64,000 bases of DNA from Candidatus Bipolaricaulota bacterium (GCA_028277345.1 JANQGM010000008.1:23573-87572), one strand, 5' to 3'. Shown: positions 4,192 to 59,588, counted from the stretch's first letter. The notes: generated by a model from the sequence alone, not told the origin. A program made the numbers and translations.

Positions 4192-4199
4192 GAGGCGAC

Positions 4200-7443: not shown

Positions 7444-7447
7444 ACGC

Positions 7448-28013: not shown

Positions 28014-28140
28014 TTCCTGCCCCAGGTTATTCACGAAAACCCCACACAGGATCGATATGGTCTGGGCATTCTTGACGCCGATACCCGAACATGGACAATG
28101 TCTGGGTTGTTTTATGTTGGAGGGCAGAGGAGGCCTGGGT

Positions 28141-30321
28141 ATGACGGAGAAAATCACAGGGGTTCTGGTTGTTGTCTTGATCGCCTGTTCATTGATGGGA
28201 CTGGCGGTTCAGTACCCTCTTACCGTGACCGACCTTGAGGTCGAGGGGAACGACGAGATTCGCTTCAAGGACATCCTGGATACCATTCATTTTAACGTGG
28301 GGTCATCGATCGAAGAGGCCGATCTTCGTGAAGCATCGCAAGCGATCTATGATCTAGGATGGTTCAGTGAGGTGACGCTTGATCGAAACGTGCTCGAAAC
28401 GGGGCGCGTTATCTTTCAGGTCGTCGAGAATCCGGTGATCCGAAAGATCGAGATCTCCGGCAACACGCATCGCCGAGATTTCATGTTCTTCGGGCTCAAG
28501 TTGTTCGACGAGCCGATCATGCCAACCTATCGAATCCGATCCATCCTCTGGGAAAACGATGTGCGTCGGCGCGACGTTCTAAACCGCGATGGACTGACGG
28601 ATGCGCTGGATGAGATCCTCGCCAAATACCGGGAGAGAGGGTATCTCACCGTTTCCGTGGGCAACGTGGAAATGGGTGAAACGCTGAGAATCGAGTTCAT
28701 TGAACACGTGTACGCGGGCAGTCTGATCGAGGGGCTTGTGAATGTCCCTGTCGAGATGGCCGAAGCCATGATTGAGATCCCCACCGGCGAACCGTTGCGG
28801 ATGTCCGACCTGGCTCGCACGAGAATGGATCTCGCGAGTTCCGTGTTCTTCTCCAACGTCGGATTCGATTACCAAGAAGGGCTTGAATCGGATTCGCTTT
28901 GGCTCATCTGGCAGCTCACTGAGCGAACGCTGATTGACGCACCCCTCTCCCTGCAGGCCATCAACTTCGCTGGGAACACCGTCTATTCGGATGCGGTATT
29001 GGCTGACCTCATTCCCACATTGCCTGAGGAACCTGTGGGCAATTACCAGCTTCTTCAGATCATCGAAGGCGTTTATGACCGGTACATCGATTCCGGTTAT
29101 ACGATGCTACGACTTGCGGTCGCTGCGATTGAAGACGGCGTTCTGACGCTTGAGTTAATCGAAGGTGCGATCTCGGAGATTGTGGTGGAGGGAAACACGA
29201 AGACTCGCGACTACGTCATCTCTCGCAACCTCGACTTCGCCGTCGGCGATGTGGCCAATCGCAATGACCTTTTGGTCACGTACCAACAGCTGAATTCGCT
29301 TGGCTATTTCGGCGCCCTTGATCTGGTGCCGGAATGGGGCGAAGAGGGTGTCGTGGTGACCATCACCATTGCTGAGAAGAAGGATATGGGAGGATTCGGT
29401 GGTTCGATGGTGATCGACCCGTCCACTGGCGATCTTCTGGGCGAGCTGTCCTTGAACCAAAAGAATCTGATGGGGACGGGACAGGACCTCGAACTCAGCT
29501 ACAGCCGTGGGCTGGTAGGCACGGATGATATCAAGCCCAGCACATGGAATCTTGGGTACAGCACCGTCGCCTATTTTCCGGAATTCGACCGCGTCGGCGT
29601 TGACCTGTTCCAGACATCGCGTGAAACGACGGTGGACGATGAAGCGGCCGTCAGCATCACCGTCGGTGGGGCGATTTCCTTTAGCTATCCGATTGCCGAG
29701 TACTCGAACTTCGGTCTTGCCTTTCGGCATGAAGAGGAGCGGGTGAATCTGGAAGACCATTGGACGCCCTCCGATGTCGTGACGCTTTCACTGACCTACA
29801 ACAACGCCAATGATCCCTTCTTCCCGACAGAAGGAAGCCGTCGTCAGCTGAAATTTGAGAAGGCTGGAGGATTCAGCGCGGGTCGTGAATACACCAAGTT
29901 CGATTTGACGTGGATTCAGTACGTTCCTTCACCGCTGCCGCTTCTTTCGTCATCCATGGATCAAACGCTGGCCATCCGTGTAAAGGCAGGATGGGGCGAT
30001 GCGACGGTTCCTCTGTCCAAGCAGATGGAGTTGGGGGGATCGACGTCTATCCGGGGTATCGAGGGGAGTCCCTCGCGGCAGTACGTTCTTTCGAACTTCG
30101 AGTACCGGATGGAGCTTGTGGACGGCCTGTACGCCACGGCATTCCTCGATGGAGGGTTCGATTTATCGAAGGTACGAATGGACGATTTACTAAGCTCCTT
30201 TGGGTTCGAATTGGGAATCAATGCAGCGGGTCTGCTGGTGCGGCTCGACTTTGTTTGGGTGCTGGATGAGGACTTTAGCTGGGTTCCTATTTTCGATTTC
30301 GGCATGGGGAGCATGTTCTAG
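28141..30321 (+). CDS. bamA: BamA/Omp85-family outer-membrane protein assembly factor
   Basis: Repeated POTRA-like units (I..I.VEGN..TRD.VI.R) and a C-terminal barrel ending ...FDFGMGSMF. ATG 28141 follows GGAGG. Confidence 0.8.
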   Translation: MTEKITGVLVVVLIACSLMGLAVQYPLTVTDLEVEGNDEIRFKDILDTIHFNVGSSIEEADLREASQAIYDLGWFSEVTLDRNVLETGRVIFQVVENPVIRKIEISGNTHRRDFMFFGLKLFDEPIMPTYRIRSILWENDVRRRDVLNRDGLTDALDEILAKYRERGYLTVSVGNVEMGETLRIEFIEHVYAGSLIEGLVNVPVEMAEAMIEIPTGEPLRMSDLARTRMDLASSVFFSNVGFDYQEGLESDSLWLIWQLTERTLIDAPLSLQAINFAGNTVYSDAVLADLIPTLPEEPVGNYQLLQIIEGVYDRYIDSGYTMLRLAVAAIEDGVLTLELIEGAISEIVVEGNTKTRDYVISRNLDFAVGDVANRNDLLVTYQQLNSLGYFGALDLVPEWGEEGVVVTITIAEKKDMGGFGGSMVIDPSTGDLLGELSLNQKNLMGTGQDLELSYSRGLVGTDDIKPSTWNLGYSTVAYFPEFDRVGVDLFQTSRETTVDDEAAVSITVGGAISFSYPIAEYSNFGLAFRHEEERVNLEDHWTPSDVVTLSLTYNNANDPFFPTEGSRRQLKFEKAGGFSAGREYTKFDLTWIQYVPSPLPLLSSSMDQTLAIRVKAGWGDATVPLSKQMELGGSTSIRGIEGSPSRQYVLSNFEYRMELVDGLYATAFLDGGFDLSKVRMDDLLSSFGFELGINAAGLLVRLDFVWVLDEDFSWVPIFDFGMGSMF

Positions 30322-37565: not shown

Positions 37566-37729
37566 TTCCGAGAACCATCCGTAAACTTCCGGTTTCGCTT
37601 CCGCCAAGTCGTTGCCGATCAAGTAGGCACAGGTATCTCCTAGCCCAACTGATTGCACTTGAGGTGAAATCGCCCCTTGAAATCGTCCGATTTTCGAGCG
37701 ATCGAAAAACGCGGAGATCGGCATGCGAA

Positions 37730-37758
37730 TTGACATTCACGCACAAAAACTGTATAAC
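37730..37758 (+). promoter_or_regulatory. sigma70-like promoter candidate upstream of ftsQ
   Basis: TTGACA (37730-37735), a 17-nt spacer, then TATAAC (37753-37758), about 50 nt upstream of the ftsQ start. Confidence 0.4.
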
Positions 37759-37806
37759 AGGATTCACGAATCTCTCTGCTGTAGGGGAAAACGAGGTCTT
37801 TGACGG

Positions 37807-38544
37807 GTGAAGGAGGGGAACACCAAGCGCCAGAGCGCCGTTTGGGTCTTCATTTCAGGGGGGGTACTCATCGCTGCTGCAATCATCGCCCTAACCACGC
37901 CGTGGCTTCGATTCTGCGATGTGCGGAAGGTCGTTGTGTCTGGAAACCACCAGGCATCGGCATCTGAGTTGGTGTCCTTGGCGGGGCTTCATCGAGGCCA
38001 GACCGTCTTTACCGTCCCCGTTCAGCGCGTTCGACAACGGCTGGAAATGCACCCCTGGGTCAAGCAAGCGTTGGTTCGGAGAGAATTCCCACACACCATC
38101 CACGTCATCATCGAGGAGCGTGCTGTGATTGCATGGGCGAATCACCCTACTGAGGATGCTCGCGTCGCGGTGGGAGAAGGCGGCGTGATCCTCGGCGGTG
38201 AAAAAATGATCGCAAGCGCGCTACACCTTGTTGGGGCTGACTTCTCAACATGGACGTTCGGCGGAAGGGTGCTGCATCAGGCGATTGCCGATCTGCTCGC
38301 CCGGTTGCCTAGCCGTTTGTGCACGATTCCCATTGAGCGGGTGGATGTCTCGGATTTGCGTTCTATTGAGCTATTCATGGAGAATGATACGCGCGTGCGA
38401 CTGGGTGGATTCGAGTCGATTGATGACCGAATCACCGCGTTGAACGCCCTCTGTCGAGAGATAGAGTTTGATCGGTATGAACTGATTGATGTCAGATTTG
38501 GGGGAGAGGGAACGCTCGTGCCCCGTAAGGCGGTGAGGAGATGA
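37807..38544 (+). CDS. ftsQ: cell division protein FtsQ (POTRA-containing)
   Basis: Single N-terminal TM (VWVFISGGVLIAAAIIALTT), then V.V.GN......E...... and HPWV....V.R.FP..I. Position before ftsA. Confidence 0.75.
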   Translation: MKEGNTKRQSAVWVFISGGVLIAAAIIALTTPWLRFCDVRKVVVSGNHQASASELVSLAGLHRGQTVFTVPVQRVRQRLEMHPWVKQALVRREFPHTIHVIIEERAVIAWANHPTEDARVAVGEGGVILGGEKMIASALHLVGADFSTWTFGGRVLHQAIADLLARLPSRLCTIPIERVDVSDLRSIELFMENDTRVRLGGFESIDDRITALNALCREIEFDRYELIDVRFGGEGTLVPRKAVRR

Positions 38545-39776
38545 GAAAAGAAAAGGTGGTTGTCGGCATTGACGTGGGCACCACTAAAGTCGTTACGTTG
38601 GTTGGCAATGTCATCGACGGAACGATTGAGATTATCGGAATGGGGAAATCCGAATCTCATGGGCTAGAGAAGGGTGTCGTCGTCGATATCGGCCGCACCA
38701 TGTCTTCCATCCGGAAGTCGGTTGAAGAGGCCGAGAATATGGCCGATGTCAAGATCGATGCGGTCTATGTCGGCATTGCCGGGAAGCACATCTCGTCGAT
38801 CAACAACTCGGGAACGGTATCCATTAACCGCCCCGACCGGATCATCACGGACGAAGACGTGCGGCGAGTGGTCGAAACGGCTCAAGCGATTCAAATTCCA
38901 CCGGAATCCGAGATGATCCACGTCATTCCGCGGCAGTACATCGTGGATGGGCAGGATGGAATTACCGATCCCGTCGGCATGACGGGAACGCGGCTTGAGG
39001 TGGACGTTCACATCGTCACGGGTTCGATTACGGCCGTGCATAACTTGGTACGGTGCGTGGAGACGCTGGGAATCGGGATCAAGCAGATCGTCTTAGAGCC
39101 CATCGCGTCGTCGCTCGCCGTCCTGTCGTCGGCCGAGAAAGAGCTTGGCGTTATTCTGATGGATATCGGCGGCGGAACGACGGATATCAGCGTTTTCCGC
39201 GGCGGCGATATCTGGTTCTCCAAGGTCATTCCGATTGCTGGAGAGCACATCACCAACGATATCACCGTTGGCCTACAAACGCCGATCGAGGAAGCCGAAC
39301 TTGTCAAGAAGATGCATGGAACGGCGTTGGTCGATTCCGTAGGCGAGGAAGAGAAGATCGAAGTCGCCTCCATCGGGGGCGATGAAAAGAAGCTGGTCTC
39401 CAAGAAACGGCTCGCCAAGATCATCGAGCCTCGCATTGAAGAGCTGCTCGATCTTGGCATGCAAGAAGTCGAAGACGCAGGCTATCGCGATCTCGTTCCC
39501 GCAGGGCTCGTTCTTACCGGCGGTTGCTCGCTTCTCAATGGGTTGACCGACTTCGCATCTCAGCGATACGACATTCCCGTTCGCCGCGGCAAGATTCCTC
39601 AGGGAATCCATGGCCTTCGTGACATCGTCGAATCTCCGATTTATGCGACATCGATTGGCCTGCTTCGCTATGCCGTGGAAACCAAGGACTTCAAGAAGCC
39701 CGAGTTCTACGAGAAGAAGCGGGAATCCATCGTCAGCAAGCTTTTCTCGTGGTTCAACCGATTCTTCCGGGGGTAG
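38541..39776 (+). CDS. ftsA: cell division protein FtsA
   Basis: VGIDVGTTKV, DIGGGTTDISVF, LTGGCSLLNGL. Confidence 0.9.
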   Translation: MRKEKVVVGIDVGTTKVVTLVGNVIDGTIEIIGMGKSESHGLEKGVVVDIGRTMSSIRKSVEEAENMADVKIDAVYVGIAGKHISSINNSGTVSINRPDRIITDEDVRRVVETAQAIQIPPESEMIHVIPRQYIVDGQDGITDPVGMTGTRLEVDVHIVTGSITAVHNLVRCVETLGIGIKQIVLEPIASSLAVLSSAEKELGVILMDIGGGTTDISVFRGGDIWFSKVIPIAGEHITNDITVGLQTPIEEAELVKKMHGTALVDSVGEEEKIEVASIGGDEKKLVSKKRLAKIIEPRIEELLDLGMQEVEDAGYRDLVPAGLVLTGGCSLLNGLTDFASQRYDIPVRRGKIPQGIHGLRDIVESPIYATSIGLLRYAVETKDFKKPEFYEKKRESIVSKLFSWFNRFFRG

Positions 39777-39779
39777 CCG

Positions 39780-40919
39780 ATGCTTGATCAGAGCAACTTT
39801 TCAGCGTCACCGGCGACCCTCATGGTGGTGGGTGCCGGGGGCGGCGGCGGAAACGCTGTTGACCGCATGTTCGACTCCAGCGGAAACGGCGTTGAGTTGG
39901 TCGTCGCCAATACGGATGCCCAAGTCTTGGAGGTTGTGCGTGCCCATCGAACACTGCAATTGGGCCGCAAACTCACCTCAGGATTGGGCGCGGGAGGAAA
40001 CCCGGAGATCGGACGCTTGGCCGCTGAAGAGAGTCGAGAGGAGATCATCGATCTGCTCAATGGTGTCGATATGGTCTTCATTACGGCCGGCATGGGCGGT
40101 GGCACTGGAACCGGTGCCGCGCCTGTGATTGCTTCAGCCGCCAAAGAGGCCGGAATCCTCACCACGGCCATCGTGACGCGGCCGTTCTCATTCGAAGGCC
40201 TCGCGCGTGCTGAGAAAGCGGAGGCTGGGATTGCTCGACTTGCTCAATCCGTGGATGCGTTGATTTGCATCTCCAACGATAAGCTGCTGAAGGTTGCGCC
40301 AACCGATACCCCAATCACCAAAGCCTTTGAAATCGCCGATGAGATTTTGCGCCAAGGTGTGGAGGGGATTTCGGACCTCATCACCGTCCCTGGCATGATC
40401 AATCTTGATTTCGCGGACATCGAATCCGTCATGCGCGATGCAGGAACAGCGATGATGGGGATCGGTGAAGGCGAGGGGGACGGCAAGACCAAGGAAGCGG
40501 CCCGCAATGCCATTTCCTCTCCTCTGTTGGATGGCTCCATTCAGGGTGCGCGCAAGGTGATCATGAACATCACCGGCGGATCCGACTTGACATTGGAGGA
40601 AGTGACATCGGCGGCCTCGTTGATCCGAGAAGCGGTGTCCGACCGAGCCGACATCATCTTTGGAACCGCCATCCGAGATGGCATGGAGAAGGTACGGTTA
40701 ACGGTGATTGCCACCGGTTTCTCTGTGGAATACGGGCGGGAAGAAGAGGATGGTCCACCGCTCTCCAACGAGTCGATGCTGGCGCGATTGGAAGAAGAAA
40801 GTCGTGTGGGCGTCGATGATTTCGACATCCCCACGTTCTTGAGAAAGAGCCGCCGCAGCCGCGAGGAACCGCCTCGGCCTCCATGGGGAGAACCCCGGCG
40901 CGATGACGGCGAGCGCTAA
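39780..40919 (+). CDS. ftsZ: cell division GTPase FtsZ
   Basis: [37 protein letters not shown]. Confidence 0.95.
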
Positions 40920-41493: not shown

Positions 41494-44400
41494 ATGGAGG
41501 AGGGCATGGTGTCACACAGGAGGGCAAGCTTCATCACGGTCTGTTTATTGCTGCTCGGAGGCATTGTAGTCTCTGCCGCGCAGCCGGTGATTGTCGACAT
41601 CTCAATTCCGGATGCATCCATGAAGATCGGAGACGTGGTCACCGCCACGATTACCGTTCAGTCGGATCCAGCGATTTACACCCTGAATGCGAGCAATATC
41701 GGCGGCTATGCCCTCAGCGGCCTGAGCAAGCAAAGCGACACCAGTTACTTTGCAGAGTTCACCATCTCCTCCGGCGGAACGGACTATGCGGCAGCCGCCG
41801 ATATCCCGACAGACATCACGCTTGCCGATGGCGGAGATTTGGGTCTATGGAACACACCCATCTCCCAAGCGAACGATTTGATAGACGCCAATGTCCCGAC
41901 GGACCCGACACCGACGAGTTCGAGCCATGCCGTGAGTGTGTGGGATGATGACAACACCATCGACATTCAAATCTCGGGAGCGAGCGATTCGGGGAGTGGT
42001 GTTGACGGATTCGAGATCGAATGGGACCAGTCCGCCACCTGGACGCCGTCTGAGACGAAAGAGCAGGAAGAGACGTGGTCCGGAGCCACCTTCACGGCGA
42101 CCTCGGATGGCGATTGGTACTTTCACATCGCCACGGTGGACAACGCGGGGAATTGGACGAGCACAGAGCACCTTGGGCCCTTCCAGATCGATACGGCACC
42201 GCCGTCTGTACCGACGGGACTGAGCCCGGCCAGCGGGAGTACGACGAGCGATACGTCCCCAATCCTTTCTTGGAGCGCATCGACGGACACCGGAGGAAGC
42301 GGAATTCGCGACACGGATGCGTATCGAATCGTGGTGACGGGACCGGTGAACCGCGATACCTACGTCTCGGATACCGACTACAATCCCTCGCTTGCGGAAG
42401 GCACGTTCACGTGGAAGGTCTATGCCCGGGACAATGCTGGGAATGTCAGCAGCTATTCCGCGGATACGACCCTGGTCATCGATACCACATCGCCGGATGT
42501 GACCATCAACGAGGCGGGGGCGCAAGACGACCCGACCAATGCCTCGCCCGTGGTCTTTACCGTCGTCTTCGATGAGCCGATCAACGACGCGACGTTCACA
42601 AATGTGGATGTGAGCGTGGGAGGAACAGCGACGACGGGAACGGTGACCGTGACTGAGGTTGCCCCGAACGATGACACCACCTTTGAAGTCAGCATTGTCG
42701 TGACCGCAGATGGAACCGTCGTTCCGTCAATCCCTGCGGGGGGCGTCGAGGACGTGGCCGGCAACACGAACACAGTCTCGACCAGTACAGACAATTCGGT
42801 GACCTATGATGCTACCGATCCCACCGATCCCACACCCTCCAGCTCCAGCCATACCGTCAGCGTGCCCTCCAACGACAACACGATCGACATTGGTATCTCA
42901 GGCGCCAGCGATACAGGAAGCGGCGTGGATGGATTTGAAATCGAGTGGGATAAGTCTGCAACATGGACGCCGACTGAGACCAAGGAGCAGGAAGAAAACT
43001 GGGCCGGTGCAACCTTCACCGCGACATCGGACGGGGATTGGTACTTCCACATCGCCACGGTGGACAACGCTGGCAATTGGACCAGTACGCAGCATCTGGG
43101 TCCGTTCTCGATCGACACCGATCCTCCAGGCGTCACGGTCGATATTGTCGATGCATCCCTCAGTGATTCGGACAACAGCTCGCTGGTGACCTTCGAGTTC
43201 GACGAGGACGTGCAGAACTTCACGATCGATGATCTGACACCGACCCACGGGACGTTGAGTTCGTTTATCACCATCGACGCGGACAGCTATACTGTCGTCT
43301 TCACAGCCACAGATGGAATCGATGCAACGGGGTCCGTGGCTGTGGGGGCGGGAACCTATACCGATCTCGTAGGCAACAACGGTGAAGCTGGCTCTGACAC
43401 GGTCGACATCGATACTGAGGATCCTCAAATCAATGACCTTGTTCTTAACGACACGCTGATCTCCGAGTCGGATACCCCCGGAGATGGAACACTTGAGATC
43501 GTGATCCTGTGCTCCGAAGCCATGGATGAAACAATCACGCCGCTCCTTATCTTCGATCCAACGGTCGCGAGCACCTTGACCTGGGATTCGGGGGGCTGGG
43601 ATGATTCATCAACCTATCGTGCCTACTACGATGTCGCAGATGGAGATGTCGAGGAAGACACCGTCACCATCGATGTCGCGGGATTGAGGGATCTGGCTGG
43701 TAACGAGCAGCAAGACATGCCGCCATGGTTCTCGATCGAGATCGATACCGTCAAACCTTCGGTATCGAGCGTGACTGTCGATACGGATCCCGTTTATGAT
43801 GGCGACCTTACGCAAGTCGTCACCGTAACATTTGACGAAGCCATGCTCGACAACGGAACAGCGGACCCGAGCATCAGCTTCGGATCGGGAAGCTGGACGA
43901 GCAATGCCGATGGCGCGTACAACGGAGCCGACACGATTTGGACGGAAACGTTTACGCTAACAGACAGTAATCAAGATGTGTCGAATGTCACTGTTGATGT
44001 AATGGGGGCCAAGGACGCGGCAGGAAACGATCAAGAGAACTATGTGGCGCAAGCTGAGTTCGATATCAATACCTTGAACCCGACGGTTACATCGATTGTC
44101 CGTGCGGATGCCAACCCAACCAACGCTGCTTCCGTCGATTTCACGGTGACGTTATCTGAGTCCGTGTCAGGAGTGACCTCAGCCAATTTCTCTTTGGACA
44201 GTACGTGTGGATGCGAGACGATCGACAGCGTGAGTGGTTCCGGCACAACGTGGGCCGTGACCGTCTTAACAGCGGACAACGAGGATTACGTAGTTGGCAT
44301 TGATCTCGACAGCGACCTTTCGTCCATCACGGATGATGCAGGCAACGAGCTTGAGGATGCATTCACGGCTGGCGAGGAGTACGAGGTGGATCGTGAGGAT

Positions 44401-47400
44401 CCGAACATCACAACAGTGTTGATCTCGCGAAGCGGGGAGACATTGAATGATGATTTCGTCGGCAGTGAGCTCTATGTGTCCATCGCGCTTGATGACGAGA
44501 TTGACCAAACGTCCATCCCCTCCATTACGTTCTCTGCGGATGTCAGCGGTACGCTGACCTACGATCGCGTGTCGTGGGGGACGCATTCTTGCAGTGTCTA
44601 CTACACGATTGGTGATGGAAACGAGGAGATTGATGGCGTCGGAGTGTGGACGATTTCCAATGTCTTCGACCATGTTGGGAACCCGGTGAACAACATCAAC
44701 TATGGTACCGACGAATTCGACATCGACAATGAAAATCCCTCGGTGAGTTCGGTGAGCTTTTCCCCTGATTTGATTGCCGATGCTGACGATGGCTCGTACT
44801 TCTACGTTAGCATCTCCTTCGATGAGGACATGGGATCTGCGAGACCCTTCATCGTATTCGTTCCGGGCCATGGATCGACGCTTTCCCCCTACATGGATGG
44901 ATGGCTCGGCGGGAGCTTTACGGCCGAATACGAGATCCATGATCGAGATGTCGACTTCGATTCGGTGACCATCACGATCACGGGGGCTGAAGATGAGCAT
45001 GGAAACGACATGCAAGCCTATACCCCGGAACCGGATGAGTGGTTCGAGATTGATACCGAGAATCCGACAGTGGCCGCTGTAACGGTCGACGACACGCTGC
45101 TCAGCGACTCGGATGCGGGGACGACGCTAACGGTGACGGTGGACTTTTCGGAGAACATGACCGACGACGGATCGGAAGACCCGGCGCTGACGTTTGCGCC
45201 GACGGTGGGCTCGACGCTGTCCTTTTCCAGCGACAGTTGGCCGAGCGCGACGCGGTATCGTGCGGTGTACGACATCTCGGACGCGGGAGTGGACGTGGAC
45301 TCGGTGACGATTGATGTGGAAGGCGCCGAGGATGCCAATGGCAACGATCAGCAGGATTACACACCGGAAAGTGAGTTTGAGATCGACACGCTGAATCCGG
45401 TGGTGTCGATGCTGACGCTGTCAGACGATGAGATCACGGATGCGGATGTGGGGAATACGTTCACGGTGACAGTGGACTTCAGCGAAGACATGATTGCGGG
45501 GACGGTGCCGAGCATCGTCTTCTCTCCGAATCTGGATACGACGCTGCAGGCGGATGCGGGCAGCAGCGGCTGGACGGCGGACGATGTCTACGTGTTCGCG
45601 TACACCATTCTGGACGGCAACGTGACCGTGCTGGACGACGACATCACGATCTCCAATGCTCAGGATCTGGCCGGCAACGTACAGGTCATCTACAACTACA
45701 ACGACCAACTGGACGTGGACACGGAGAACCCGTACTTCCACGACTTCACGGTGACGGGTGGAGCGGTGGATGCGGATTGTCTGCGCGTAGTGACGTTTAC
45801 AGCGAAGGTCACGGATCCCAATGGTACGATGGTTCCCGGAGACATCACCGTGACGGCGGCATCGGTGACGAATACGGCGGCCGGGATCACGGCGGGCGAT
45901 GTGTACGACATCCAGCAAACCAGCGATAACCAAACGACGATTACGATTACCGGCAAGGTGGATATTGAGGATCTAACGGACTGTCCGGCGCGGGTGACGA
46001 TTACGCTGGATGCGGTGGACAGCGTGGACAACGACGCAGCCCAGCAGTCACAGTCCGACGATGTGGTGGATACCACGATTCCCACCATCGACGATCTTCG
46101 GTTCGATACGGATGATACGCATGCGGCCGAACAAACGGTACCGTACCTGGTGGACGAGTGCGGTCGCGTGGTGGTGTACTTCTCGGCGACGATCAACGAC
46201 AACTGCTGCATCGACGATGGCAACGTGACGGTCGATGTGACGTTGCCATTGCTGGCAGGAGAAGGCGACGCCGTGCTGGAGGATATTGACGTTGAGCTGA
46301 CACAGAACGGCCAGAACCAGGTGTTGATGACGGGCAGCGCGGTAGTGCGATGTCTGGAGAGCGTGACGCCGCGGCCGAATCCGGCCGGGCTGTCGCGAGT
46401 GCAGATTGACGTGGCTGCCTACGACTGCTGCGGCAATGATGCCGTGTCCGTGGAAACGGGCACCGGCGAGGGGCTGGTGGATGACGAGATTCTCCCGATT
46501 CCGCGAGACGATCCGAGACAAGACATGGTGATGGATGAGAGCGCCATTGCTGATGAGAACTTGTTGCTGAAGGTGCGATTGGACGAATTTGGCGTTTACA
46601 GGCTTGTATTGCGAGAAAACACCCCGGTGCGCATCGATCTGCTGGCCAACGACGCCGACAACCTGACGCACAATGTGGGCCATCCATTTGGACCATGTGT
46701 GGCGTGCGGTCCTTGTGGCGGCCAGACGGGGTGCTGTGCCGAGATCTTCGTGTACGAGATTGTGCAGCATCCGACGTTTGGTACCGCGGAGATCATCGAT
46801 GACTCCGGAGACTGCGGCGGTGGCAGCGTCATTCGTTTCGCGCCGGACCGCGGCTACTTGGGTCCCGACTTCTTCACCTACCGCATCGTGGATGCATTTG
46901 GGAACGTGTCCGATGTGATCGCCACCGTGTACCTGCAAACGGTGCCGGAAGTGTGGGTCGAGGACATCTTTGTGGTGGCATGTGGCGATGAAACGACCGA
47001 GTTCAGCTTACCGGTGTCGGATCTGTTCATCGACATCGAGGATCCGAGCCGGATCCCGTTTGAGTTTGAGATCTTGGCTGGCCCGAGTCATGGCGTGGTG
47101 ACGGGGAGTGTGCAGAACATCGACTACGCGCCGCCGAGCACGGTGACCGATCCGCAGTTTGGCGTGCAGGTGCCGTCGTTGGACTTCACCGAGACAGCGA
47201 TTCTGAACATGAGTTACACGCCGGCGGATGGATTTGAGGGCCGAGATCTGATCCGCGTGCAGATTAGCGACCCGTTTGGAGGATCGGCGATTGCCGTGGT
47301 GGACTTTGCCGTGGGCGCGTGCGGTCCAGCGGCAGCGGGGGAAGCGATCCTGAAGCTGGCCGGCAACCAGATCCTGCCAATGCTGCTGCCGGGGCCGGTG

Positions 47401-47622
47401 GGTGAAGCGTTGATGGCGGATCCCAGCGTGGTGCTGCTGCGCGACGTGGAGACGGGTACACTCTATGCGGAGGCGCTGGCAATCGGATGGGACGAGGAGG
47501 CACGAGCCTACGTTCTGATGATCGATGGATCGAAGCTGCCGTACGACATCTACGAGTTGGTGATTCCGTTGGATGGCGGCGAAGCGGTGACGTTGCAGTT
47601 GGAAGTGGGTGAGGCCGAGTGA
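41494..47622 (+). CDS. giant secreted multi-Ig/Fn3/cadherin-like repeat surface protein (2042 aa)
   Basis: Signal peptide (ASFITVCLLLLGGIVVSAAQP) and about 17-18 modules of roughly 100-115 aa, many joined by D-x-x-x-P junctions. DNAGN-type motifs. The true start may be 41506 or 41509, closer to GGAGGAGGG. Confidence 0.9.
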   Translation: MEEGMVSHRRASFITVCLLLLGGIVVSAAQPVIVDISIPDASMKIGDVVTATITVQSDPAIYTLNASNIGGYALSGLSKQSDTSYFAEFTISSGGTDYAAAADIPTDITLADGGDLGLWNTPISQANDLIDANVPTDPTPTSSSHAVSVWDDDNTIDIQISGASDSGSGVDGFEIEWDQSATWTPSETKEQEETWSGATFTATSDGDWYFHIATVDNAGNWTSTEHLGPFQIDTAPPSVPTGLSPASGSTTSDTSPILSWSASTDTGGSGIRDTDAYRIVVTGPVNRDTYVSDTDYNPSLAEGTFTWKVYARDNAGNVSSYSADTTLVIDTTSPDVTINEAGAQDDPTNASPVVFTVVFDEPINDATFTNVDVSVGGTATTGTVTVTEVAPNDDTTFEVSIVVTADGTVVPSIPAGGVEDVAGNTNTVSTSTDNSVTYDATDPTDPTPSSSSHTVSVPSNDNTIDIGISGASDTGSGVDGFEIEWDKSATWTPTETKEQEENWAGATFTATSDGDWYFHIATVDNAGNWTSTQHLGPFSIDTDPPGVTVDIVDASLSDSDNSSLVTFEFDEDVQNFTIDDLTPTHGTLSSFITIDADSYTVVFTATDGIDATGSVAVGAGTYTDLVGNNGEAGSDTVDIDTEDPQINDLVLNDTLISESDTPGDGTLEIVILCSEAMDETITPLLIFDPTVASTLTWDSGGWDDSSTYRAYYDVADGDVEEDTVTIDVAGLRDLAGNEQQDMPPWFSIEIDTVKPSVSSVTVDTDPVYDGDLTQVVTVTFDEAMLDNGTADPSISFGSGSWTSNADGAYNGADTIWTETFTLTDSNQDVSNVTVDVMGAKDAAGNDQENYVAQAEFDINTLNPTVTSIVRADANPTNAASVDFTVTLSESVSGVTSANFSLDSTCGCETIDSVSGSGTTWAVTVLTADNEDYVVGIDLDSDLSSITDDAGNELEDAFTAGEEYEVDREDPNITTVLISRSGETLNDDFVGSELYVSIALDDEIDQTSIPSITFSADVSGTLTYDRVSWGTHSCSVYYTIGDGNEEIDGVGVWTISNVFDHVGNPVNNINYGTDEFDIDNENPSVSSVSFSPDLIADADDGSYFYVSISFDEDMGSARPFIVFVPGHGSTLSPYMDGWLGGSFTAEYEIHDRDVDFDSVTITITGAEDEHGNDMQAYTPEPDEWFEIDTENPTVAAVTVDDTLLSDSDAGTTLTVTVDFSENMTDDGSEDPALTFAPTVGSTLSFSSDSWPSATRYRAVYDISDAGVDVDSVTIDVEGAEDANGNDQQDYTPESEFEIDTLNPVVSMLTLSDDEITDADVGNTFTVTVDFSEDMIAGTVPSIVFSPNLDTTLQADAGSSGWTADDVYVFAYTILDGNVTVLDDDITISNAQDLAGNVQVIYNYNDQLDVDTENPYFHDFTVTGGAVDADCLRVVTFTAKVTDPNGTMVPGDITVTAASVTNTAAGITAGDVYDIQQTSDNQTTITITGKVDIEDLTDCPARVTITLDAVDSVDNDAAQQSQSDDVVDTTIPTIDDLRFDTDDTHAAEQTVPYLVDECGRVVVYFSATINDNCCIDDGNVTVDVTLPLLAGEGDAVLEDIDVELTQNGQNQVLMTGSAVVRCLESVTPRPNPAGLSRVQIDVAAYDCCGNDAVSVETGTGEGLVDDEILPIPRDDPRQDMVMDESAIADENLLLKVRLDEFGVYRLVLRENTPVRIDLLANDADNLTHNVGHPFGPCVACGPCGGQTGCCAEIFVYEIVQHPTFGTAEIIDDSGDCGGGSVIRFAPDRGYLGPDFFTYRIVDAFGNVSDVIATVYLQTVPEVWVEDIFVVACGDETTEFSLPVSDLFIDIEDPSRIPFEFEILAGPSHGVVTGSVQNIDYAPPSTVTDPQFGVQVPSLDFTETAILNMSYTPADGFEGRDLIRVQISDPFGGSAIAVVDFAVGACGPAAAGEAILKLAGNQILPMLLPGPVGEALMADPSVVLLRDVETGTLYAEALAIGWDEEARAYVLMIDGSKLPYDIYELVIPLDGGEAVTLQLEVGEAE
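41902..42201 (+). repeat. intragenic duplicated module, copy 1 (aa 137-236)
   Basis: DPTPTSSSHAVSV...SGVDGFEIEWDQSATWTPSETKEQEETWSGATFTATSDGDWYFHIATVDNAGNWTSTEHLGPFQIDTAPP. Confidence 0.85.
42823..43128 (+). repeat. intragenic duplicated module, copy 2 (aa 444-545)
   Basis: DPTPSSSSHTVSV...SGVDGFEIEWDKSATWTPTETKEQEENWAGATFTATSDGDWYFHIATVDNAGNWTSTQHLGPFSIDTDPP. About 85% aa identity to copy 1 by eye. Confidence 0.85.
43114..45732 (+). repeat. array of eight diverged ~105-115-aa Ig-like modules (aa 541-1413)
   Basis: Junctions IDTDPP, IDTEDP, IDTVKP, INTLNP, VDREDP, IDNENP, IDTENP, IDTLNP and VDTENP recur at regular intervals. Confidence 0.75.
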
Positions 47623-49160
47623 AGGTGCGCGTAGGGTGGCTTGCCGGACTTCTATTGCTGACTATCACGCTGCTGGGGACGGCCAACAGCGCTCCGTCGA
47701 TGGATGACGAGTATGTGCTGACGACGCGCGAAACGGCGACGGAGATCGTTCTGAAGGCGACGGACGCCGATATTGCGGTTGCGATGCCGGAGGCGCATCG
47801 AATGGCGTTCTATGTGATCGCGGGTCCGGAACACGGTATCTTGGTGGGCGAACTGACCGATGTGATCTACAGCGATCCAAAGACGGTATCGGTGGTGCTG
47901 ACGTACGTCCCGGCGGACGGGTTCTTGGGAACGGACACGATCCACGTTGAAGTGGTGGACCCGTTTGGTGAAGCGGACGCCGCCATTGTGCAAATCGACG
48001 TGCAAGAGCAGCGGATTCCCGGGGTGCTGGCAGGGAACTGGACGAGTGAAGTGACCTACATTGTGAGCCCTGGGCCGGCGCAGAGCGCCGGGTTCACGGC
48101 GTTTCGTTCCATGTTCACCGAGTCGTATCGCATTGGGGCGCTGACGTTGAAGAGCGTGGCGTCGTTGCAGATGGAGATTGACGGCATCATCAAGGACATG
48201 ACATTCGATTCGTTGCGGTTCGACAGCCACATTTCGCTGACATCGATTGACCTGCGTTCGACGTTGTCGTTTGATCCGGATGCCGATGTATGGGCGGATG
48301 TGTTTGACTACTTCTTGAACACGACGCGATGGAGCATTGGGGGACTGGATCTCACGCATACGTGGTACGTGTTGAACACACAGACGGATTCGTACCAATC
48401 GCTGAACGCGGCCGTGAACCTGGGCATCTTCCGGCTGAACAACTTGACGCGGTTCAACCTGGACCCGAGCTGTCACTATGTGTTCTCCAGCAACATGAGT
48501 TCGTTGTACTGGTCGTGGTGCGACGTGCCGATGTCGGCGCAGTTCTCGATCACGGATGCGGGCTTCAACTACGCGCAAGTGAGTGCAAGTTCGATTCCGA
48601 TCGAGCGTTGGGCCTGGTTGCCGGAGGGATTGTATGCCAACACGTCGCTTCGGTTTGATCTGAGTTCTGGAAAGGTGTTTACGGCGTCATTTGGATGGCG
48701 GCCGATGCAGATTGGGTGTGTGGAGATCTTCGCGGAATTGGATCTGGATGGTCCGGGAGCGGGGCCGGTGACCAGCGATACGATCATTGACGGGATCAGT
48801 GTGTATGGGATGCGGATTAGCTGCAGCATTCCTGGGACGTACGGGGACGTGCGGGTGGTGTCGGCGACCTCGTTTGTTGACAGCAAGAACTCGACGGTGA
48901 CGGGGCAGTCGGACTATTTTGAAGTGATCCGGCTGAGCGGACCGATGGGGTCGTGCTGCGGGTATCCGGGGACGTGGAGTGTGGCCACGTACTTCAACGA
49001 GGCCGAGACGGGGGTGCTGTTTGACTGGGGGATGACGGTGATCGGTGCGGATGTGAACATCTCGGATCACTTTACGGGGTACATTGAGACGGTGTTTAGG
49101 TCGGAGTACTTTGATGATCCGCGGATGGAGATTACGTTGGGTTGGACGGCGCGGTGGTAG
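47619..49160 (+). CDS. secreted protein: N-terminal Ig/cadherin-like module plus ~400-aa putative outer-membrane beta-barrel domain
   Basis: GTGA overlap with the giant ORF. Signal peptide MKVRVGWLAGLLLLTITLLGTANS. The module is homologous to the distal modules of the giant protein. The C-terminus MEITLGWTARW has alternating hydrophobics and a terminal aromatic. Confidence 0.8.
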   Translation: MKVRVGWLAGLLLLTITLLGTANSAPSMDDEYVLTTRETATEIVLKATDADIAVAMPEAHRMAFYVIAGPEHGILVGELTDVIYSDPKTVSVVLTYVPADGFLGTDTIHVEVVDPFGEADAAIVQIDVQEQRIPGVLAGNWTSEVTYIVSPGPAQSAGFTAFRSMFTESYRIGALTLKSVASLQMEIDGIIKDMTFDSLRFDSHISLTSIDLRSTLSFDPDADVWADVFDYFLNTTRWSIGGLDLTHTWYVLNTQTDSYQSLNAAVNLGIFRLNNLTRFNLDPSCHYVFSSNMSSLYWSWCDVPMSAQFSITDAGFNYAQVSASSIPIERWAWLPEGLYANTSLRFDLSSGKVFTASFGWRPMQIGCVEIFAELDLDGPGAGPVTSDTIIDGISVYGMRISCSIPGTYGDVRVVSATSFVDSKNSTVTGQSDYFEVIRLSGPMGSCCGYPGTWSVATYFNEAETGVLFDWGMTVIGADVNISDHFTGYIETVFRSEYFDDPRMEITLGWTARW

Positions 49161-55661: not shown

Positions 55662-56420
55662 CTATCCAGGTCCCAAGGCATCGGGGTCGAAGGATTCCGG
55701 AGGGAGCGCTTCTGTCCCGATGTCCAAGATTTCGGATGTCGTGATCCGCCCGATGAGCAGCTGATTGACGATTCGCTGCATGGTCACGTAAACGTCTGTC
55801 TCGTCGCGGGTCTCGTAAACCTCGTAGAACACCTCGTAGAAAGGAATGCCGCTCACCGCGTACAACATGGCGGAGATGGGAGTGAGCGTGGAGGCATCCA
55901 CCTTGACCGTGACGACTTGGAAGGCGACCGTGAAATCGATGGCGGCAAGGTCGATCTCCAGGATCTCCTCGCCCTCTTCGTTTACCACGGACCGACGCTC
56001 CTCGATGGTGTACGAATCGGCAAATCGAATGCCGCTTGTTTGGGCGACAGCGGAATCGCCGAAGACTTCGGTGGTCGCGCTGGTCTTGATCGGAAAATCC
56101 AAGTCGGGGCCGTAGAAATAGGTGGCGTCCGGCGTGGAGAGGAAGATTTGTCCGGCCAGTTCCTCGGGCGCGTCAAACGAAATCCGCGCAAACGAGCCGT
56201 CCTCGGTATCGAGGAACGACAGATTGAGCGACGCTTCGCGCGTTTCATCCGGTGTTTCGGACACGATTCGAACGGCGATCTGGGTCACGGTTTCATCGAA
56301 GAACCGTACCTCATCCAGCCTCGTTAGCAACTCGAGGTCCGAGAGGTCTTGGGAGGACGCCGATACAACGGGCAACAACGCAAGGGTGACGAGCAGGGTC
56401 ATAGCGATCGATCGTTTCAT
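55662..56420 (-). CDS. LolA-like outer-membrane lipoprotein-sorting family protein
   Basis: 252 aa from MKRSIAMTLLVTLALLPVVSASSQ (AGGAG SD). Beta-rich, last gene of the FtsX/ABC operon. The track's 412-aa version was trimmed. Confidence 0.65.
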   Translation of the reverse strand: MKRSIAMTLLVTLALLPVVSASSQDLSDLELLTRLDEVRFFDETVTQIAVRIVSETPDETREASLNLSFLDTEDGSFARISFDAPEELAGQIFLSTPDATYFYGPDLDFPIKTSATTEVFGDSAVAQTSGIRFADSYTIEERRSVVNEEGEEILEIDLAAIDFTVAFQVVTVKVDASTLTPISAMLYAVSGIPFYEVFYEVYETRDETDVYVTMQRIVNQLLIGRITTSEILDIGTEALPPESFDPDALGPG

Positions 56421-56437
56421 GATTCTCCTTTCCTCGG

Positions 56438-57649
56438 TCAGATGCTCCTCAACGCATCGACAATCTGAATGCGAGAATTGCGCCAAGAGGGGAACGTCGA
56501 ACTCAACAACGTGGATACCAGGACGGTGACGATCGGCATCAAGATAACTTGGGTTCCCAGCCGAAGTTGAATGGCCTGAGGGATCGCAGCTCCCGGCGGC
56601 GTCCAGGTGAAGCCGATGGCATTGAAACTGAGCAGAAGAATGGCGCTCAAGATTGCGCCAAGGACGGCGCCGATGACGCCGAGAAATGCGCCTTCCAGCA
56701 AGAATGAGCGAAAGATTCGTCCGCGCTGCGTCCCAAAGGCGCGAAGTGTGCCGATTTCCCGGCTGCGCTCGAGGAACGAAATCGTGAGCACTTCCAACAC
56801 GCTGAAAAAGACGAGGACGGCGATACCGATCATGGCCAATCCCGAGAAGGCCGCATAGAACGATCGGATCGATTCGTACGATGCATTCAATTCTTCCCAC
56901 GTCCGGGTCACCAACGGAATGCCGGCTGCATCCAATCGGGCTTGCAGGGCGGCGGCAAAGGCATCGGAATCATCAAGGTCCTCAAGACCAATGAGAATGC
57001 GCTCTACACCGTCCGTCTTCAGCAATCTCTGAACGAACGAGATGGGGAAAAGTCCCAGTTGACTTTCAAGATCCTCAAACGCATAGGTCATTTCACCGCT
57101 CACATCGACGGTGGCGGCATTGAAGTTTCCGGACACCGTCCCGGTCGCGATGTTGATCCGGTCGCCCGGAACGACGCCAAGCTTTCGCGCCAACGCGCTT
57201 CCGAGAACGACCTGGCGATCGGACATCTCCTCCAGCGGGTCGCCGGCGATGACGATGCATTCGTAGTCCTGAACATCGCTGCAGGGGACGACGCCTTGGC
57301 CGATGATGAGCGTGCTCCCTTCTTCGTTGCCGACCAATCCGGCGAAGTTCAATTGCCACGAGACGCCAATGACCCCATCGAGTGTCGAGGCTTCCAGGAT
57401 CACGCGATCGAGAGTTTCGGGTGAAATGAGGTAGTCGTAATCGCTTGATGTGTTCTCAAACAGTCCTTCGCTGGCCACTTGCACGGCTCCCGATTCGCTA
57501 GCGAGCGATTCCTTGGTCGACTGAAGGGCTTCTTGAACGAATCCCAGAACCGAGACGAGGACGAGGAACCCAATGACGATCACGGCCAGGCTGAAGGCGG
57601 TGCGGCGCCGGTTCCGGAACACATTTCTCAGTGCGCTCTTCACTTGCAT
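56438..57649 (-). CDS. ABC transporter permease, FtsX/MacB-LolE type
   Basis: N-terminus ALRNVFRNRRRTAFS, a large periplasmic domain, then the C-terminal FtsX 3-TM bundle (REIGTLRAFG). Confidence 0.85.
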   Translation of the reverse strand: MQVKSALRNVFRNRRRTAFSLAVIVIGFLVLVSVLGFVQEALQSTKESLASESGAVQVASEGLFENTSSDYDYLISPETLDRVILEASTLDGVIGVSWQLNFAGLVGNEEGSTLIIGQGVVPCSDVQDYECIVIAGDPLEEMSDRQVVLGSALARKLGVVPGDRINIATGTVSGNFNAATVDVSGEMTYAFEDLESQLGLFPISFVQRLLKTDGVERILIGLEDLDDSDAFAAALQARLDAAGIPLVTRTWEELNASYESIRSFYAAFSGLAMIGIAVLVFFSVLEVLTISFLERSREIGTLRAFGTQRGRIFRSFLLEGAFLGVIGAVLGAILSAILLLSFNAIGFTWTPPGAAIPQAIQLRLGTQVILMPIVTVLVSTLLSSTFPSWRNSRIQIVDALRSI

Positions 57650-57661
57650 CTCGCCTCCTTT

Positions 57662-58873
57662 CTAATTGACCCTCAGGGCGTCGACCACGCGGATTCCCGA
57701 GGTTTGGATCGCGGGGAACACGGCGGAGAGTAACGTCGAAACCACGCCCACCAAGAAGGGCGGCGCCGCCGTCAGCAATCCCAATCGAACGGCCAGCACA
57801 CTGGTTTCAACCGTGCCCGGCGGCTGCCATTCGATCCCCAACGCGTTGAACCCCCATCCCATGAGCACGCCCGTCAAGACGCCGGCTGCGCTTCCGATCA
57901 AGGCCAGCCACGCGCTTTCAATGAGAAGCTGGCGAAACACCTCGGAGCGGGTGGTCCCCAATGCACGAAGGGTTCCGATCTCTCGTGTTCTCTCCAGGAA
58001 GGCGAGCGTCAGTACCTGAAGGATGATGAAGAATACGAGGATGAACACGGCCAAGGTGAGGAATCCAAACAAGAGATCGAAAAACCCCGACAGTTGCTGA
58101 TAAATCGCCGATAATTCAAACCACGTGCGGACGTCGAGTTCGATGGAGGCACGATCCAGCTGGCTGACGATCGCTTCCTTGGCGTCATCCGTTGCCGAAA
58201 TCGACTCCAGCCCGACGATCAATCGTTCGACGCCCCGGGTTCCCAGAAGAAGCTGGGCAAAGGACTGGGGCATGAACAAGGTTTGTAGCTCGACTTGTTC
58301 CGAGGTGAACTTGTAGATCCCCACGATCCGTAGCGGCGTTGCGTTGTAGGCGCCGTTGACTGTCGTGAGGGTCAAGGTGACGACATCGTCAACGTGGAGT
58401 CCCAGGCGGTCGGCCAGAGAGCGCCCCATCAGGATGCTGGCGACATCGGTTTCGTCCAGCGGTCGGCCTTTGAAAACCAGCTTGTCCGCATTCAGGACCG
58501 AATTGCCGGGGACTTGAGCGGTCACGCGGACGACTTGTGTCTGCTTGCCCGAGGCGATCAGGCCGGGGAATTGAAGCTGGGTTGTGATGCCGGTCACTGC
58601 TGCGTGTTGGGAGAGCAGATTGCGAACCTGCGCCTCGCGCTCCGGGTCGATGAGGTAGTCGTAGCCGTCTGCCGTGTCGTCAAAAAGATCGGCTGAGGCG
58701 AGCTGGAGGTTCCCGTACTCATTGACGGCGGCGGCTTGGATCTGAAGACGGGAATCTTCCAAGAAGCCGTAGACAAACAAGGAGATGGCCGTCCCTAAGG
58801 CGATGATGGCGACAGAAAGGAGCGTGCGGCGACGGTTACGCAGCAGGCTGCGAAGCGGTATCCACCACGTCAT
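57662..58873 (-). CDS. ABC transporter permease, FtsX/MacB-LolE type (second copy)
   Basis: LRSLLRNRRRTLLS, REIGTLRALG. ATG 58873 follows GGAGG. Confidence 0.85.
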   Translation of the reverse strand: MTWWIPLRSLLRNRRRTLLSVAIIALGTAISLFVYGFLEDSRLQIQAAAVNEYGNLQLASADLFDDTADGYDYLIDPEREAQVRNLLSQHAAVTGITTQLQFPGLIASGKQTQVVRVTAQVPGNSVLNADKLVFKGRPLDETDVASILMGRSLADRLGLHVDDVVTLTLTTVNGAYNATPLRIVGIYKFTSEQVELQTLFMPQSFAQLLLGTRGVERLIVGLESISATDDAKEAIVSQLDRASIELDVRTWFELSAIYQQLSGFFDLLFGFLTLAVFILVFFIILQVLTLAFLERTREIGTLRALGTTRSEVFRQLLIESAWLALIGSAAGVLTGVLMGWGFNALGIEWQPPGTVETSVLAVRLGLLTAAPPFLVGVVSTLLSAVFPAIQTSGIRVVDALRVN

Positions 58874-59588
58874 GGGCGCCTCCTTCCTGCAAACAACCAT
58901 CGTGAATGCGGATTTGACGCCGCGCGTACTGGGTCACGGCGGGGTCATGCGTGACGACGATGAACACCACGCAGTGTTCTTCGTTCAGCGTTCGCATGAG
59001 ATTCATCACTTGCGCGCCGGTTTCCGAATCCAGATTGGCGGTGGGTTCATCGGCGAGGACGAGTTTCGGCTGAGTGATGAGCGCTCGCGCGATGGCAATA
59101 CGCTGCCTCTGCCCGCCGGACAGCTCATTGGGCCGTCGCCGGGCGAGATCCCGCAACCCGACTTCTCCCAAGATGGCGTCGACGCGCTTTGCCCGCTCCG
59201 ATTTGGACAGCTTCTGAAGCAGAAGGGGATATTCGGCATTCTCTGCCGCCGACAACACGGGAATGAGGTTGAAGGTTTGAAAGATGAGGCCGATTTTCTC
59301 TTTCCGAAGCTGGGCCAGTTGCTTTTCGTTGAGCGTGTTCGTCGAGACGCCTTCGACCACAACCTCGCCTTCTGTTGGGCGATCGATGGCGGAGATCAGG
59401 TTGAGAAAAGTTGTTTTTCCACTTCCGGACGGCCCGTTGATGACCACGAAGTCGCCTTGCGCCGCCGTGAAATCGACATCCCTGAGCGCATAGACCGTCG
59501 ACCCTCCCACTTGGTAGGTCTTCGTCAGGCGCTGCGCCTCCAGGAACGAACGTCCCTGTTCATGACAAAACTGACTTATAGTTCCCAT
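58836..59588 (-). CDS. ABC transporter ATP-binding protein (LolD/MacB-type)
   Basis: GPSGSGKTT, LSGGQRQRIAIARAL, LVLADEPT. Confidence 0.9.
   Translation of the reverse strand: MGTISQFCHEQGRSFLEAQRLTKTYQVGGSTVYALRDVDFTAAQGDFVVINGPSGSGKTTFLNLISAIDRPTEGEVVVEGVSTNTLNEKQLAQLRKEKIGLIFQTFNLIPVLSAAENAEYPLLLQKLSKSERAKRVDAILGEVGLRDLARRRPNELSGGQRQRIAIARALITQPKLVLADEPTANLDSETGAQVMNLMRTLNEEHCVVFIVVTHDPAVTQYARRQIRIHDGCLQEGGAHDVVDTASQPAA

Follow-up and report, generated by a model that had tools for sequence, protein, structure and literature searches.

A predicted 22-strand outer-membrane barrel fused to an Ig-like domain: a candidate dock for the giant Ig-repeat protein encoded beside it in Candidatus Bipolaricaulota

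How might a protein of more than 2000 residues be fixed to an outer membrane (OM), and what is the protein encoded directly behind it? Both questions are raised by a pair of genes in a 64,000-nucleotide (nt) stretch from a Candidatus Bipolaricaulota bacterium (GCA_028277345.1 JANQGM010000008.1:23573-87572), the whole of which we call the window. Here a gene for a 2042-amino-acid (aa) protein of immunoglobulin-like (Ig-like) repeats, the giant, is followed immediately by a gene for a 513-aa protein, which a first-pass annotation had described from the DNA alone as a signal peptide, one Ig-like module shared with the giant and a putative new OM barrel. Our analysis supports that description and indicates that the 513-aa protein is very probably an OM barrel; the fuller statement, that this Ig-fused barrel sits in the OM as a specific dock for the adjacent giant, we hold to have about an even chance of being right. 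The features on which the argument turns are as follows.

41494..47622, plus strand: giant Ig-repeat protein, 2042 aa, with Big_12, Big_9 and Big_13 domains; its stop overlaps the barrel start
47619..49160, plus strand, stop included: open reading frame (ORF) of the 513-aa barrel protein, with signal peptide, Ig-like domain and predicted 22-strand OM barrel
47619..47693, plus strand: Sec-type signal peptide, about residues 1-25 (K2/R4, hydrophobic core, ...TANSAP)
47685..47996, plus strand: Big_9 Ig-like beta-sandwich, residues 23-126 (Pfam PF17963, E 2.3e-5)
48024..49157, plus strand: barrel domain, residues 136-513, 22 predicted antiparallel strands

The ORF at 47619-49160 opens with GTG and runs for 513 codons to a stop; its start shares 4 nt (GTGA) with the stop of the giant ORF. 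Since the N-terminal Met and a signal-peptide-like segment are kept across 40 homologues, the barrel protein has a conserved signal peptide of its own; it is accordingly a separate protein, and its reading as a tail split from the giant by a frameshift, or as a fusion artefact, was rejected. Residues 1-23 are the sole helix-length hydrophobic segment found in a hydrophobicity scan, and the AlphaFold2 (AF2) model places a helix at residues 2-20 within it. Basic residues followed by a hydrophobic segment, as in a Sec signal, are conserved in homologues, and the signal peptide that had been proposed therefore stands. A net charge of -36 makes the mature protein acidic.

The Ig-like module is equally well defined. 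Pfam scores it as Big_9 at 25.6 bits against a cut-off of 23.6; AF2 folds residues 31-129 into a sandwich of seven to eight strands (predicted local distance difference test, pLDDT, 86-96); and about six residues join it to the barrel. The first-pass annotation had spoken of a module shared with the giant, and this is real, because the N-terminal module matches giant residues 1822-1938 at 30% identity (BLASTP, E 5e-16).

Beyond about residue 130 the same annotation had seen many short alternating hydrophobic and polar runs. Every peptide string that it quoted is present in the translation, and the beta-amphipathicity of residues 131-513 is 1.08, against 0.82 +/- 0.07 in 200 shuffled controls; with z about 3.9, the alternation lies above chance. 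Across 41 homologues the two faces of the strands differ by a mean of 2.3 Kyte-Doolittle units. The final strand, MEITLGWTARW, carries W, A, W, L, I and M at positions -1, -3, -5, -7, -9 and -11 as described, and in the last twelve residues, RMEITLGWTARW, all odd positions from the end are hydrophobic. As in a C-terminal beta-signal, the last residue is aromatic: the barrel ends in R-W, and the terminal W is present in 144 of the 144 sequences that align to their end in a 184-sequence alignment of the family.

Structure prediction gives these runs a common architecture. The full-length AF2 model, built from a 41-sequence alignment (pLDDT 85.2; predicted template-modelling score, pTM, 0.58), contains 22 strands of 8-17 residues between residues 136 and 512, each joined to its sequence neighbour in a hairpin meander, together with a short helix (421-428) and a disordered loop (379-389). 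A barrel-only run returned the identical 22-strand layout (pLDDT 82.7, pTM 0.61). Turns after even-numbered strands are mostly of 2 residues and loops after odd-numbered strands of 2-16, a pattern that in the models would correspond to short periplasmic turns and longer external loops, as expected if the N-terminus is periplasmic. Both models thus have the even number of antiparallel next-neighbour strands, with short turns alternating with longer loops, that is looked for in an OM barrel.

When the models were compared with the PDB by Foldseek, as the first-pass annotation had proposed, 137 and 163 matches were obtained at E<=1e-3, and OM barrels with a probability of 1.0 filled nearly all of the top 50 places. 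The template-modelling score (TM-score) of the barrel-only model is 0.23-0.31 with 16- to 18-strand porins and Occ channels, 0.35-0.48 with the 22-strand BtuB and Cir (Cir, at 0.47-0.48, is the best) and 0.44-0.47 with the 24-strand FimD, so that the best fit is to barrels of 22 and 24 strands. The model is not expected to be an open sheet, because an open sheet would not make the TM-score track strand number. The putative OM barrel is in this way borne out by a confident 22-strand hairpin model whose structural neighbours are almost exclusively OM barrels.

Several observations pull against so simple a picture. Strands 2, 6, 10, 12 and 14 have no clear hydrophobic face; pTM is only 0.58-0.61 and all TM-scores are below 0.5; and the map obtained by mean-field covariation from 184 sequences of the family (effective number 83-148) is noisy. 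In that map 86% of sequence-neighbour strand pairs exceed the 95th percentile of other pairs. The pair that would close the barrel, strands 1 and 22, ranks 51 of 209 on anti-diagonal averaging, which is not significant. Scored by its top five pairs in the 107 sequences with gap-free ends, the strand 1-22 block ranks 5 of 210 non-neighbour pairs (z about 3.1), and its top pairs, 141-509 and 144-506, lie on one antiparallel register; this covariation is no more than suggestive of closure. For cross-lumen strand pairs, which bear on whether the barrel is flattened, the metrics disagreed with each other. Closure of the barrel is thus a prediction drawn from the TM-score trend and the weak covariation signal.

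No named family accounts for the barrel. Pfam and NCBIfam scans of the protein return only Big_9 at residues 23-126 and leave the barrel uncovered: POTRA, Omp85, usher, TonB-receptor, autotransporter and porin models have no match. A family profile made from the full-length alignment has no match at E<=1 among all PDB sequences, and ten distant family members have no Pfam or NCBIfam match over the barrel. The earlier statement that the protein lacks POTRA repeats and is not TpsB/Omp85 agrees with the Pfam scan, and by sequence (Pfam, NCBIfam, PDB) there is no confident match to a characterised porin, usher or TonB-dependent transporter family.

Four known identities were rejected individually. 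An Omp85/TpsB protein is not indicated, as PF07244, PF08479 and PF01103 are absent and 22 strands are predicted against the 16 of the Omp85 type. For a chaperone-usher usher there is no Pfam or NCBIfam signature, the neighbours are ftsZ, the giant, pgl and zwf, and the likeness is structural only. A TonB-dependent transporter would have a plug, a TonB box or a TonB_dep_Rec match, none of which was found, and the N-terminal domain is Big_9. Autotransporters and inverse autotransporters are set aside by the lack of PF03797 and PF11924, by 22 strands against 12, and by a giant that is separate and has its own signal peptide.

The gene neighbourhoods of relatives are more informative. The order giant-then-barrel is found in 8 of 8 orthologous loci and, where the flanks hold, reads ftsA-ftsZ-giant-barrel-(pgl-zwf)-rpiA-EamA. 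Further afield, a barrel-only profile recovers 397 cluster representatives (50% identity) at E<=1e-3 among 1.84 billion proteins. Barrel-only members are 360-390 aa long and extended forms about 500, 580, 690 and 800-930 aa, with N-terminal extensions that are Big_9, cadherin-like, DUF7507/DUF11 or unannotated; the number of such modules ranges from none to several. Among these distant members P0133 follows a 4964-aa DUF11/CARDB/SdrD_B protein, P0204 follows a 4634-aa DUF11/CARDB protein, P0183 precedes a 1616-aa Big_12/HYR protein, and P0269 lies in a cluster of two family members with PKD/Ig proteins. Adjacency to an Ig-type giant thus recurs in subfamilies at 19-29% identity, with differing gene orders. 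In the DUF11-linked subfamily, a relative of which (P0213) carries a Bipolaricaulota label, the barrel extensions (DUF11/DUF7507) are of the partner's module type.

Other members have a second kind of partner. P0149, P0171, P0241 and P0312 each stand directly after a 180-230-aa protein with an S-layer homology (SLH) domain, in a context that is conserved among the four loci (ffh-rpsP-trmD-rplS-lepB-rnhB). Each of these small proteins carries a signal peptide together with a single SLH domain, some 60 aa of coiled-coil-like sequence and a C-terminal transmembrane (TM) helix, ...NANFIISLTALLVGIIGVALATLGL. Omp-alpha is built in the same way (PMC9388160), and a split SLH-plus-barrel system resembling OmpM has been described from gene context in Thermotogae, Bipolaricaulota and Fraserbacteria (bioRxiv 10.1101/2021.05.31.446380). 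The Omp-alpha-like SLH proteins, each directly upstream of a paralogous barrel, are located as follows.

L016 9085-9777: Omp-alpha-like SLH protein
L017 9215-9790: Omp-alpha-like SLH protein
L019 7209-7826: Omp-alpha-like SLH protein
L020 7280-7822: Omp-alpha-like SLH protein

The orthogroup of the window's barrel aligns with the SLH-adjacent barrels over 341 of 370 columns (hhalign, probability 100%, E 2e-49), and the barrel itself matches them at E 1e-30 to 1e-34 (BLASTP). Because this homology runs end to end, we read the barrel as an Ig-fused paralogue of an Omp-beta-like barrel. The first-pass annotation did not recognise the barrel family; that holds insofar as the family has no name, and fails insofar as it is homologous throughout to the barrels beside Omp-alpha-like proteins. 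To its question whether homologues always neighbour giant Ig-repeat genes, the answer is that they do in the eight orthologous loci and among distant members, and that four others adjoin SLH proteins. Every sampled family context has either a giant Ig-repeat neighbour or a small neighbour with SLH domain, coiled coil and TM helix. One of the SLH-adjacent barrels has an unusual layout of its own: in P0171 (828 aa, L017 10001-12487) the profile covers the first strand at 23-52 and the remaining barrel at 509-840, which implies an insertion of about 450 aa after strand 1, without a Pfam match.

The comparison with Omp-alpha/Omp-beta has to be drawn with care. The logic is the same, a barrel and a separately encoded partner, and the homology established is with the SLH-adjacent barrels. 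Unlike that system, the present locus has no SLH protein: Pfam finds no SLH domain in either of the two proteins or in the genes that flank them, and the SLH partner that marks the split OmpM-like arrangement is seen only in the paralogous loci. The partner here is instead a 2042-aa Ig-repeat protein without a TM helix, and the barrel has an Ig domain of its own. OmpM of Veillonella and SlpA of Deinococcus likewise combine an N-terminal periplasmic extension with a C-terminal OM barrel and belong to diderm Terrabacteria lineages. OmpM has 16 strands and combines tether and porin roles (PMC10628300); SlpA has 30, and its insertions have been suggested to help anchor the Ig-array HPI S-layer (PMC9388160). 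The present protein differs from both in its 22 predicted strands and in an extension that is an Ig domain and not SLH plus coiled coil.

An OM protein also needs a host with an OM. The FtsA and FtsZ encoded in the window are 88% and 82% identical to those of a Candidatus Bipolaricaulota metagenome-assembled genome (MAG; L014), and the named close homologues of the 513-aa protein are from Bipolaricaulota. When genomes were scanned with alignment A2, just 6 near relatives came up; every one is in a Bipolaricaulota-type MAG, and some of these MAGs were deposited under the labels Atribacteria or Thermotogae. Bipolaricaulota are diderm: the Ran1 genome has OM markers and no lipopolysaccharide (LPS) genes (PMC6092417), and the first isolate has a toga-like OM with a hexagonal surface pattern (bioRxiv 10.1101/2025.11.21.689855). 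An OM barrel is biologically possible in the host because the phylum is diderm with a toga-like OM. Insertion by the machinery for beta-barrel assembly (BAM) further calls for a BamA, and the window encodes a protein with POTRA and Omp85 domains at 28057-30321.

Within the barrel the strongest conservation is in an unexpected place. The loop motifs FDP, VTGQxDYFE, CCGxPGxW and LFDWGM are the most conserved of the family and lie in predicted external loops, the reverse of ordinary porins. Such a placement suggests either that these loops are folded inward, into the lumen, or that they make up a binding site. At 19-26% identity the motifs FDP, G-F, CC-G and LFD-G are kept, as are Cys 301, 367, 446 and 447 and the terminal W. 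No orthogroup lacks any of the four cysteines, and they occur in 94-97% of 184 family sequences whose shared identity is about 20%; the barrel protein has two further cysteines, 285 and 402. In the model the invariant residues fall in the turn between strands 10 and 11, at the start of strand 15 and in the turn between strands 18 and 19, that is, in three short-turn hairpins. Co-loss across the family hints that Cys 301 pairs with 446/447. The invariance might be explained if the barrel were flattened, if subunits of a lattice were bonded to one another, or if the cysteines were bonded to the giant in its Cys-rich C-terminal region.

The candidate partner is an unusual protein. Apart from one signal-like segment at its N-terminus, the giant is free of hydrophobic stretches; it contains 12.5% Asp, carries a net charge of -315 and has no match in the PDB. 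Orthologous giants differ in length (2042 aa in the window, 1344 aa in L003): the middle repeats differ in number and the C-terminal 330 residues are conserved at 35-57% identity in 7 orthologous loci. Two regions of the giant matter for what follows.

46630..47619, plus strand: C-terminal 330 residues of the giant, with two Big_9-like modules and a tail of about 100 aa; candidate docking region
46957..47307, plus strand: giant module, residues 1822-1938, homologous to the Ig domain of the barrel protein

A docking mechanism can be put together from these elements. The giant and barrel genes are translationally coupled through the GTGA overlap. The barrel protein would be exported by Sec and then inserted by BAM with both termini in the periplasm, so placing its Ig domain at the periplasmic rim, by analogy with the N-terminal extensions of OmpM, SlpA, BamA and ushers. 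The conserved C-terminal modules of the giant could dock on the barrel protein through the common Big_9 module, which would fix the giant to the toga-like OM, and the rest of the chain might thread through the wide barrel to the surface. In the family at large, taken to be lineage-specific, members would be membrane-embedded partners of an adjacent envelope protein, which may be an Omp-alpha-like tether or a giant acidic Ig-repeat protein. Where the giant would lie is suggested differently by different features: its extreme acidity and adhesin-type repeats favour surface exposure, and the analogy with Omp-alpha favours a contact in the periplasm.

Several facts count against docking in this form. 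Barrel-only paralogues also adjoin giants, and because they do, contact between Ig domains is not the general docking mode. The support for docking consists of sequence and gene context, and in a round 22-strand barrel the four invariant cysteines would, according to the model, be too distant for intramolecular disulfides.

An unlikely alternative is that the protein is a dedicated OM translocon, an usher-like pore that exports the giant's Ig domains, with its own periplasmic Ig domain recruiting them much as the N-terminal domain of an usher does, and with anchoring secondary or absent. The ushers FimD and PapC are among the best structural matches (TMq 0.38-0.47), and they too combine a wide barrel with an N-terminal periplasmic domain and Ig-fold substrates. 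A lumen of 22 strands could admit a polypeptide or a small folded domain; beyond its Sec signal the giant shows no known signal for export or anchoring; its gene is coupled to that of the barrel; and its acidity suggests that it reaches the surface. Yet ushers have 24 strands, a plug and C-terminal domains, and their substrates are polymerising pilins where the candidate substrate here is one giant chain; in this case there is no PF00577 match, and usher, TpsB and secretin signatures, a plug domain and a chaperone gene were all not found (Pfam, NCBIfam). Paralogous barrels, moreover, partner Omp-alpha-like tethers, which are not secreted, and the most conserved motifs are in loops that may fill the lumen.

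Two other OM systems resemble the pair in part. The TonB-dependent transporters Cir and BtuB have 22 strands, the best TM-scores and a domain ahead of the barrel; they differ in possessing a plug and a TonB box, both absent here along with any TonB_dep_Rec match, and the N-terminal domain of our protein is an Ig sandwich. RTX adhesins of the LapA/MpIBP type are giant Ig-repeat proteins that a terminal module, kept at the periplasmic side of an OM channel, retains at the OM, and they use type 1 secretion, a TolC-like pore and an N-terminal retention module. Unlike these, the giant would be exported by Sec, its conserved end is C-terminal, and its channel would be a monomeric beta-barrel.

Somewhat less probable again than a translocon is a barrel with a general structural or porin role in the toga, as a lattice component of the Omp-beta type or as a diffusion channel; adjacency to the giant would then reflect only co-regulation of envelope genes, and the Ig domain would be a periplasmic spacer that has no specific partner. 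The homology to SLH-adjacent Omp-beta-like barrels fits such a role, as do the construction of Thermotoga togas from several lineage-specific barrels (PMC10160955) and the joining of tether and porin roles in OmpM. What argues against it is the specificity of the pairing: the adjacency to Ig giants returns in divergent subfamilies despite different gene orders, the N-terminal module of the barrel matches its partner's type (Big_9 here, DUF11/DUF7507 in others), and at this locus the genes overlap by 4 nt.

Least of all do we favour a soluble or surface beta-rich sandwich or solenoid, disulfide-stapled and secreted with the giant, a very improbable reading for which the low pTM and TM-scores, the weakly amphipathic character of some strands and a set of four invariant and two further cysteines that is unusual in an OM barrel can be cited, and against which stand structural neighbours that are almost exclusively OM barrels at probability 1.0 with a fit that tracks strand number, 22 next-neighbour strands with alternating short and long connections, a C-terminus resembling a beta-signal, paralogues that hold the Omp-beta position beside Omp-alpha-like proteins, and a BamA encoded in the genome.

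Returning to the Ig-fused barrel as a dock, part of the finding is already known: the protein is of the OM-barrel kind, and its family corresponds to the Omp-beta-like partner of SLH tethers that earlier work reported for this clade. In the literature searched, neither the fusion to an Ig domain with linkage to a giant nor the dual partnership of the family was found. They suggest that one barrel family has been reused for two jobs, wall tethering with an SLH partner and the holding of giant Ig-repeat proteins. This is relevant because debates on the origin and loss of the OM centre on the diderm Terrabacteria with their deep-branching relatives (Thermotogae, Deinococcus, Bipolaricaulota), whose envelope proteins are mostly lineage-specific and unnamed. 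The locus is a conserved candidate for fixing a protein of more than 2000 residues to the Bipolaricaulota toga. In the preprint on the first isolate the proteins of the hexagonal surface layer are left unnamed (bioRxiv 10.1101/2025.11.21.689855), and the giant and barrel might be among the proteins of that toga.

A bolder version may be stated, though as a whole we regard it as a long shot: the Omp-beta-type barrel might be a modular socket, taking either a peptidoglycan tether or a giant Ig chain that is threaded outward with its C-terminal modules docked to the barrel's Ig domain, and the pair behind ftsZ might encode the surface-layer or sheath component seen by cryo-electron microscopy on the first cultured member. 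If true, it would be an undescribed route for displaying very large proteins on an LPS-less, toga-type OM.

Some features of the giants deserve mention in their own right. At about residues 1556-1774, in its conserved C-terminal part, the giant of the window has three vicinal CC pairs (1571-72, 1645-46, 1747-48) and a CVACGPCGGQTGCC motif, CxxCxxCx5CC; the barrel too has an invariant CC pair, and a disulfide or metal link between giant and barrel is conceivable. A near-identical unit of about 100 aa occurs twice, at about residues 136-240 and 452-556 (PTDPTP..SGVDGFEIEWD..DGDWYFHIATVDNAGNW..), with weak matches to OmpL47-type and Y_Y_Y domains. At four orthologous loci the barrel gene is followed by another large gene for an Ig protein, with conserved stretches at L001 5828-6760, L010 6887-7750, L011 7368-8072 and L012 1772-2656. 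Over 235-311 aa these stretches share 73-81% identity with a portion of the giant in the window that lies within its first 600 residues, far above the barrel identity of just 45-52% in the same four loci; the sequences suggest that a conserved module has been shuffled among giants.

Around the pair, the window, which is a segment of bacterial chromosome, holds the following genes.

28057..30321, plus strand: BamA/Omp85 homologue, 754 aa, with POTRA_2, POTRA and Omp85 domains, ending ...GMGSMF
36177-40919: murC, ftsQ, ftsA and ftsZ, upstream of the giant gene
Downstream of the barrel gene, opposite strand: pgl, zwf and rpiA

The BamA homologue lies about 17 kb upstream of the barrel gene and about 6 kb upstream of murC. 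OM genes are therefore found on either side of the division genes, with BamA upstream and the giant and barrel after ftsZ. No second copy (paralogue) of the barrel gene was found within the window. At 55662-58900 (minus strand) a LolA-like protein of 411 aa is encoded near a MacB/FtsX-type permease, resembling a lipoprotein-sorting module, in a lineage that is reported to have no LPS genes; both kinds of gene are found beside the orthologous locus L001 as well. Elsewhere, at 3214-8704 (plus strand), are genes of ordinary central metabolism: ornithine/aspartate carbamoyltransferase, citrate lyase beta/ACP and alpha, and an aconitase-family protein.

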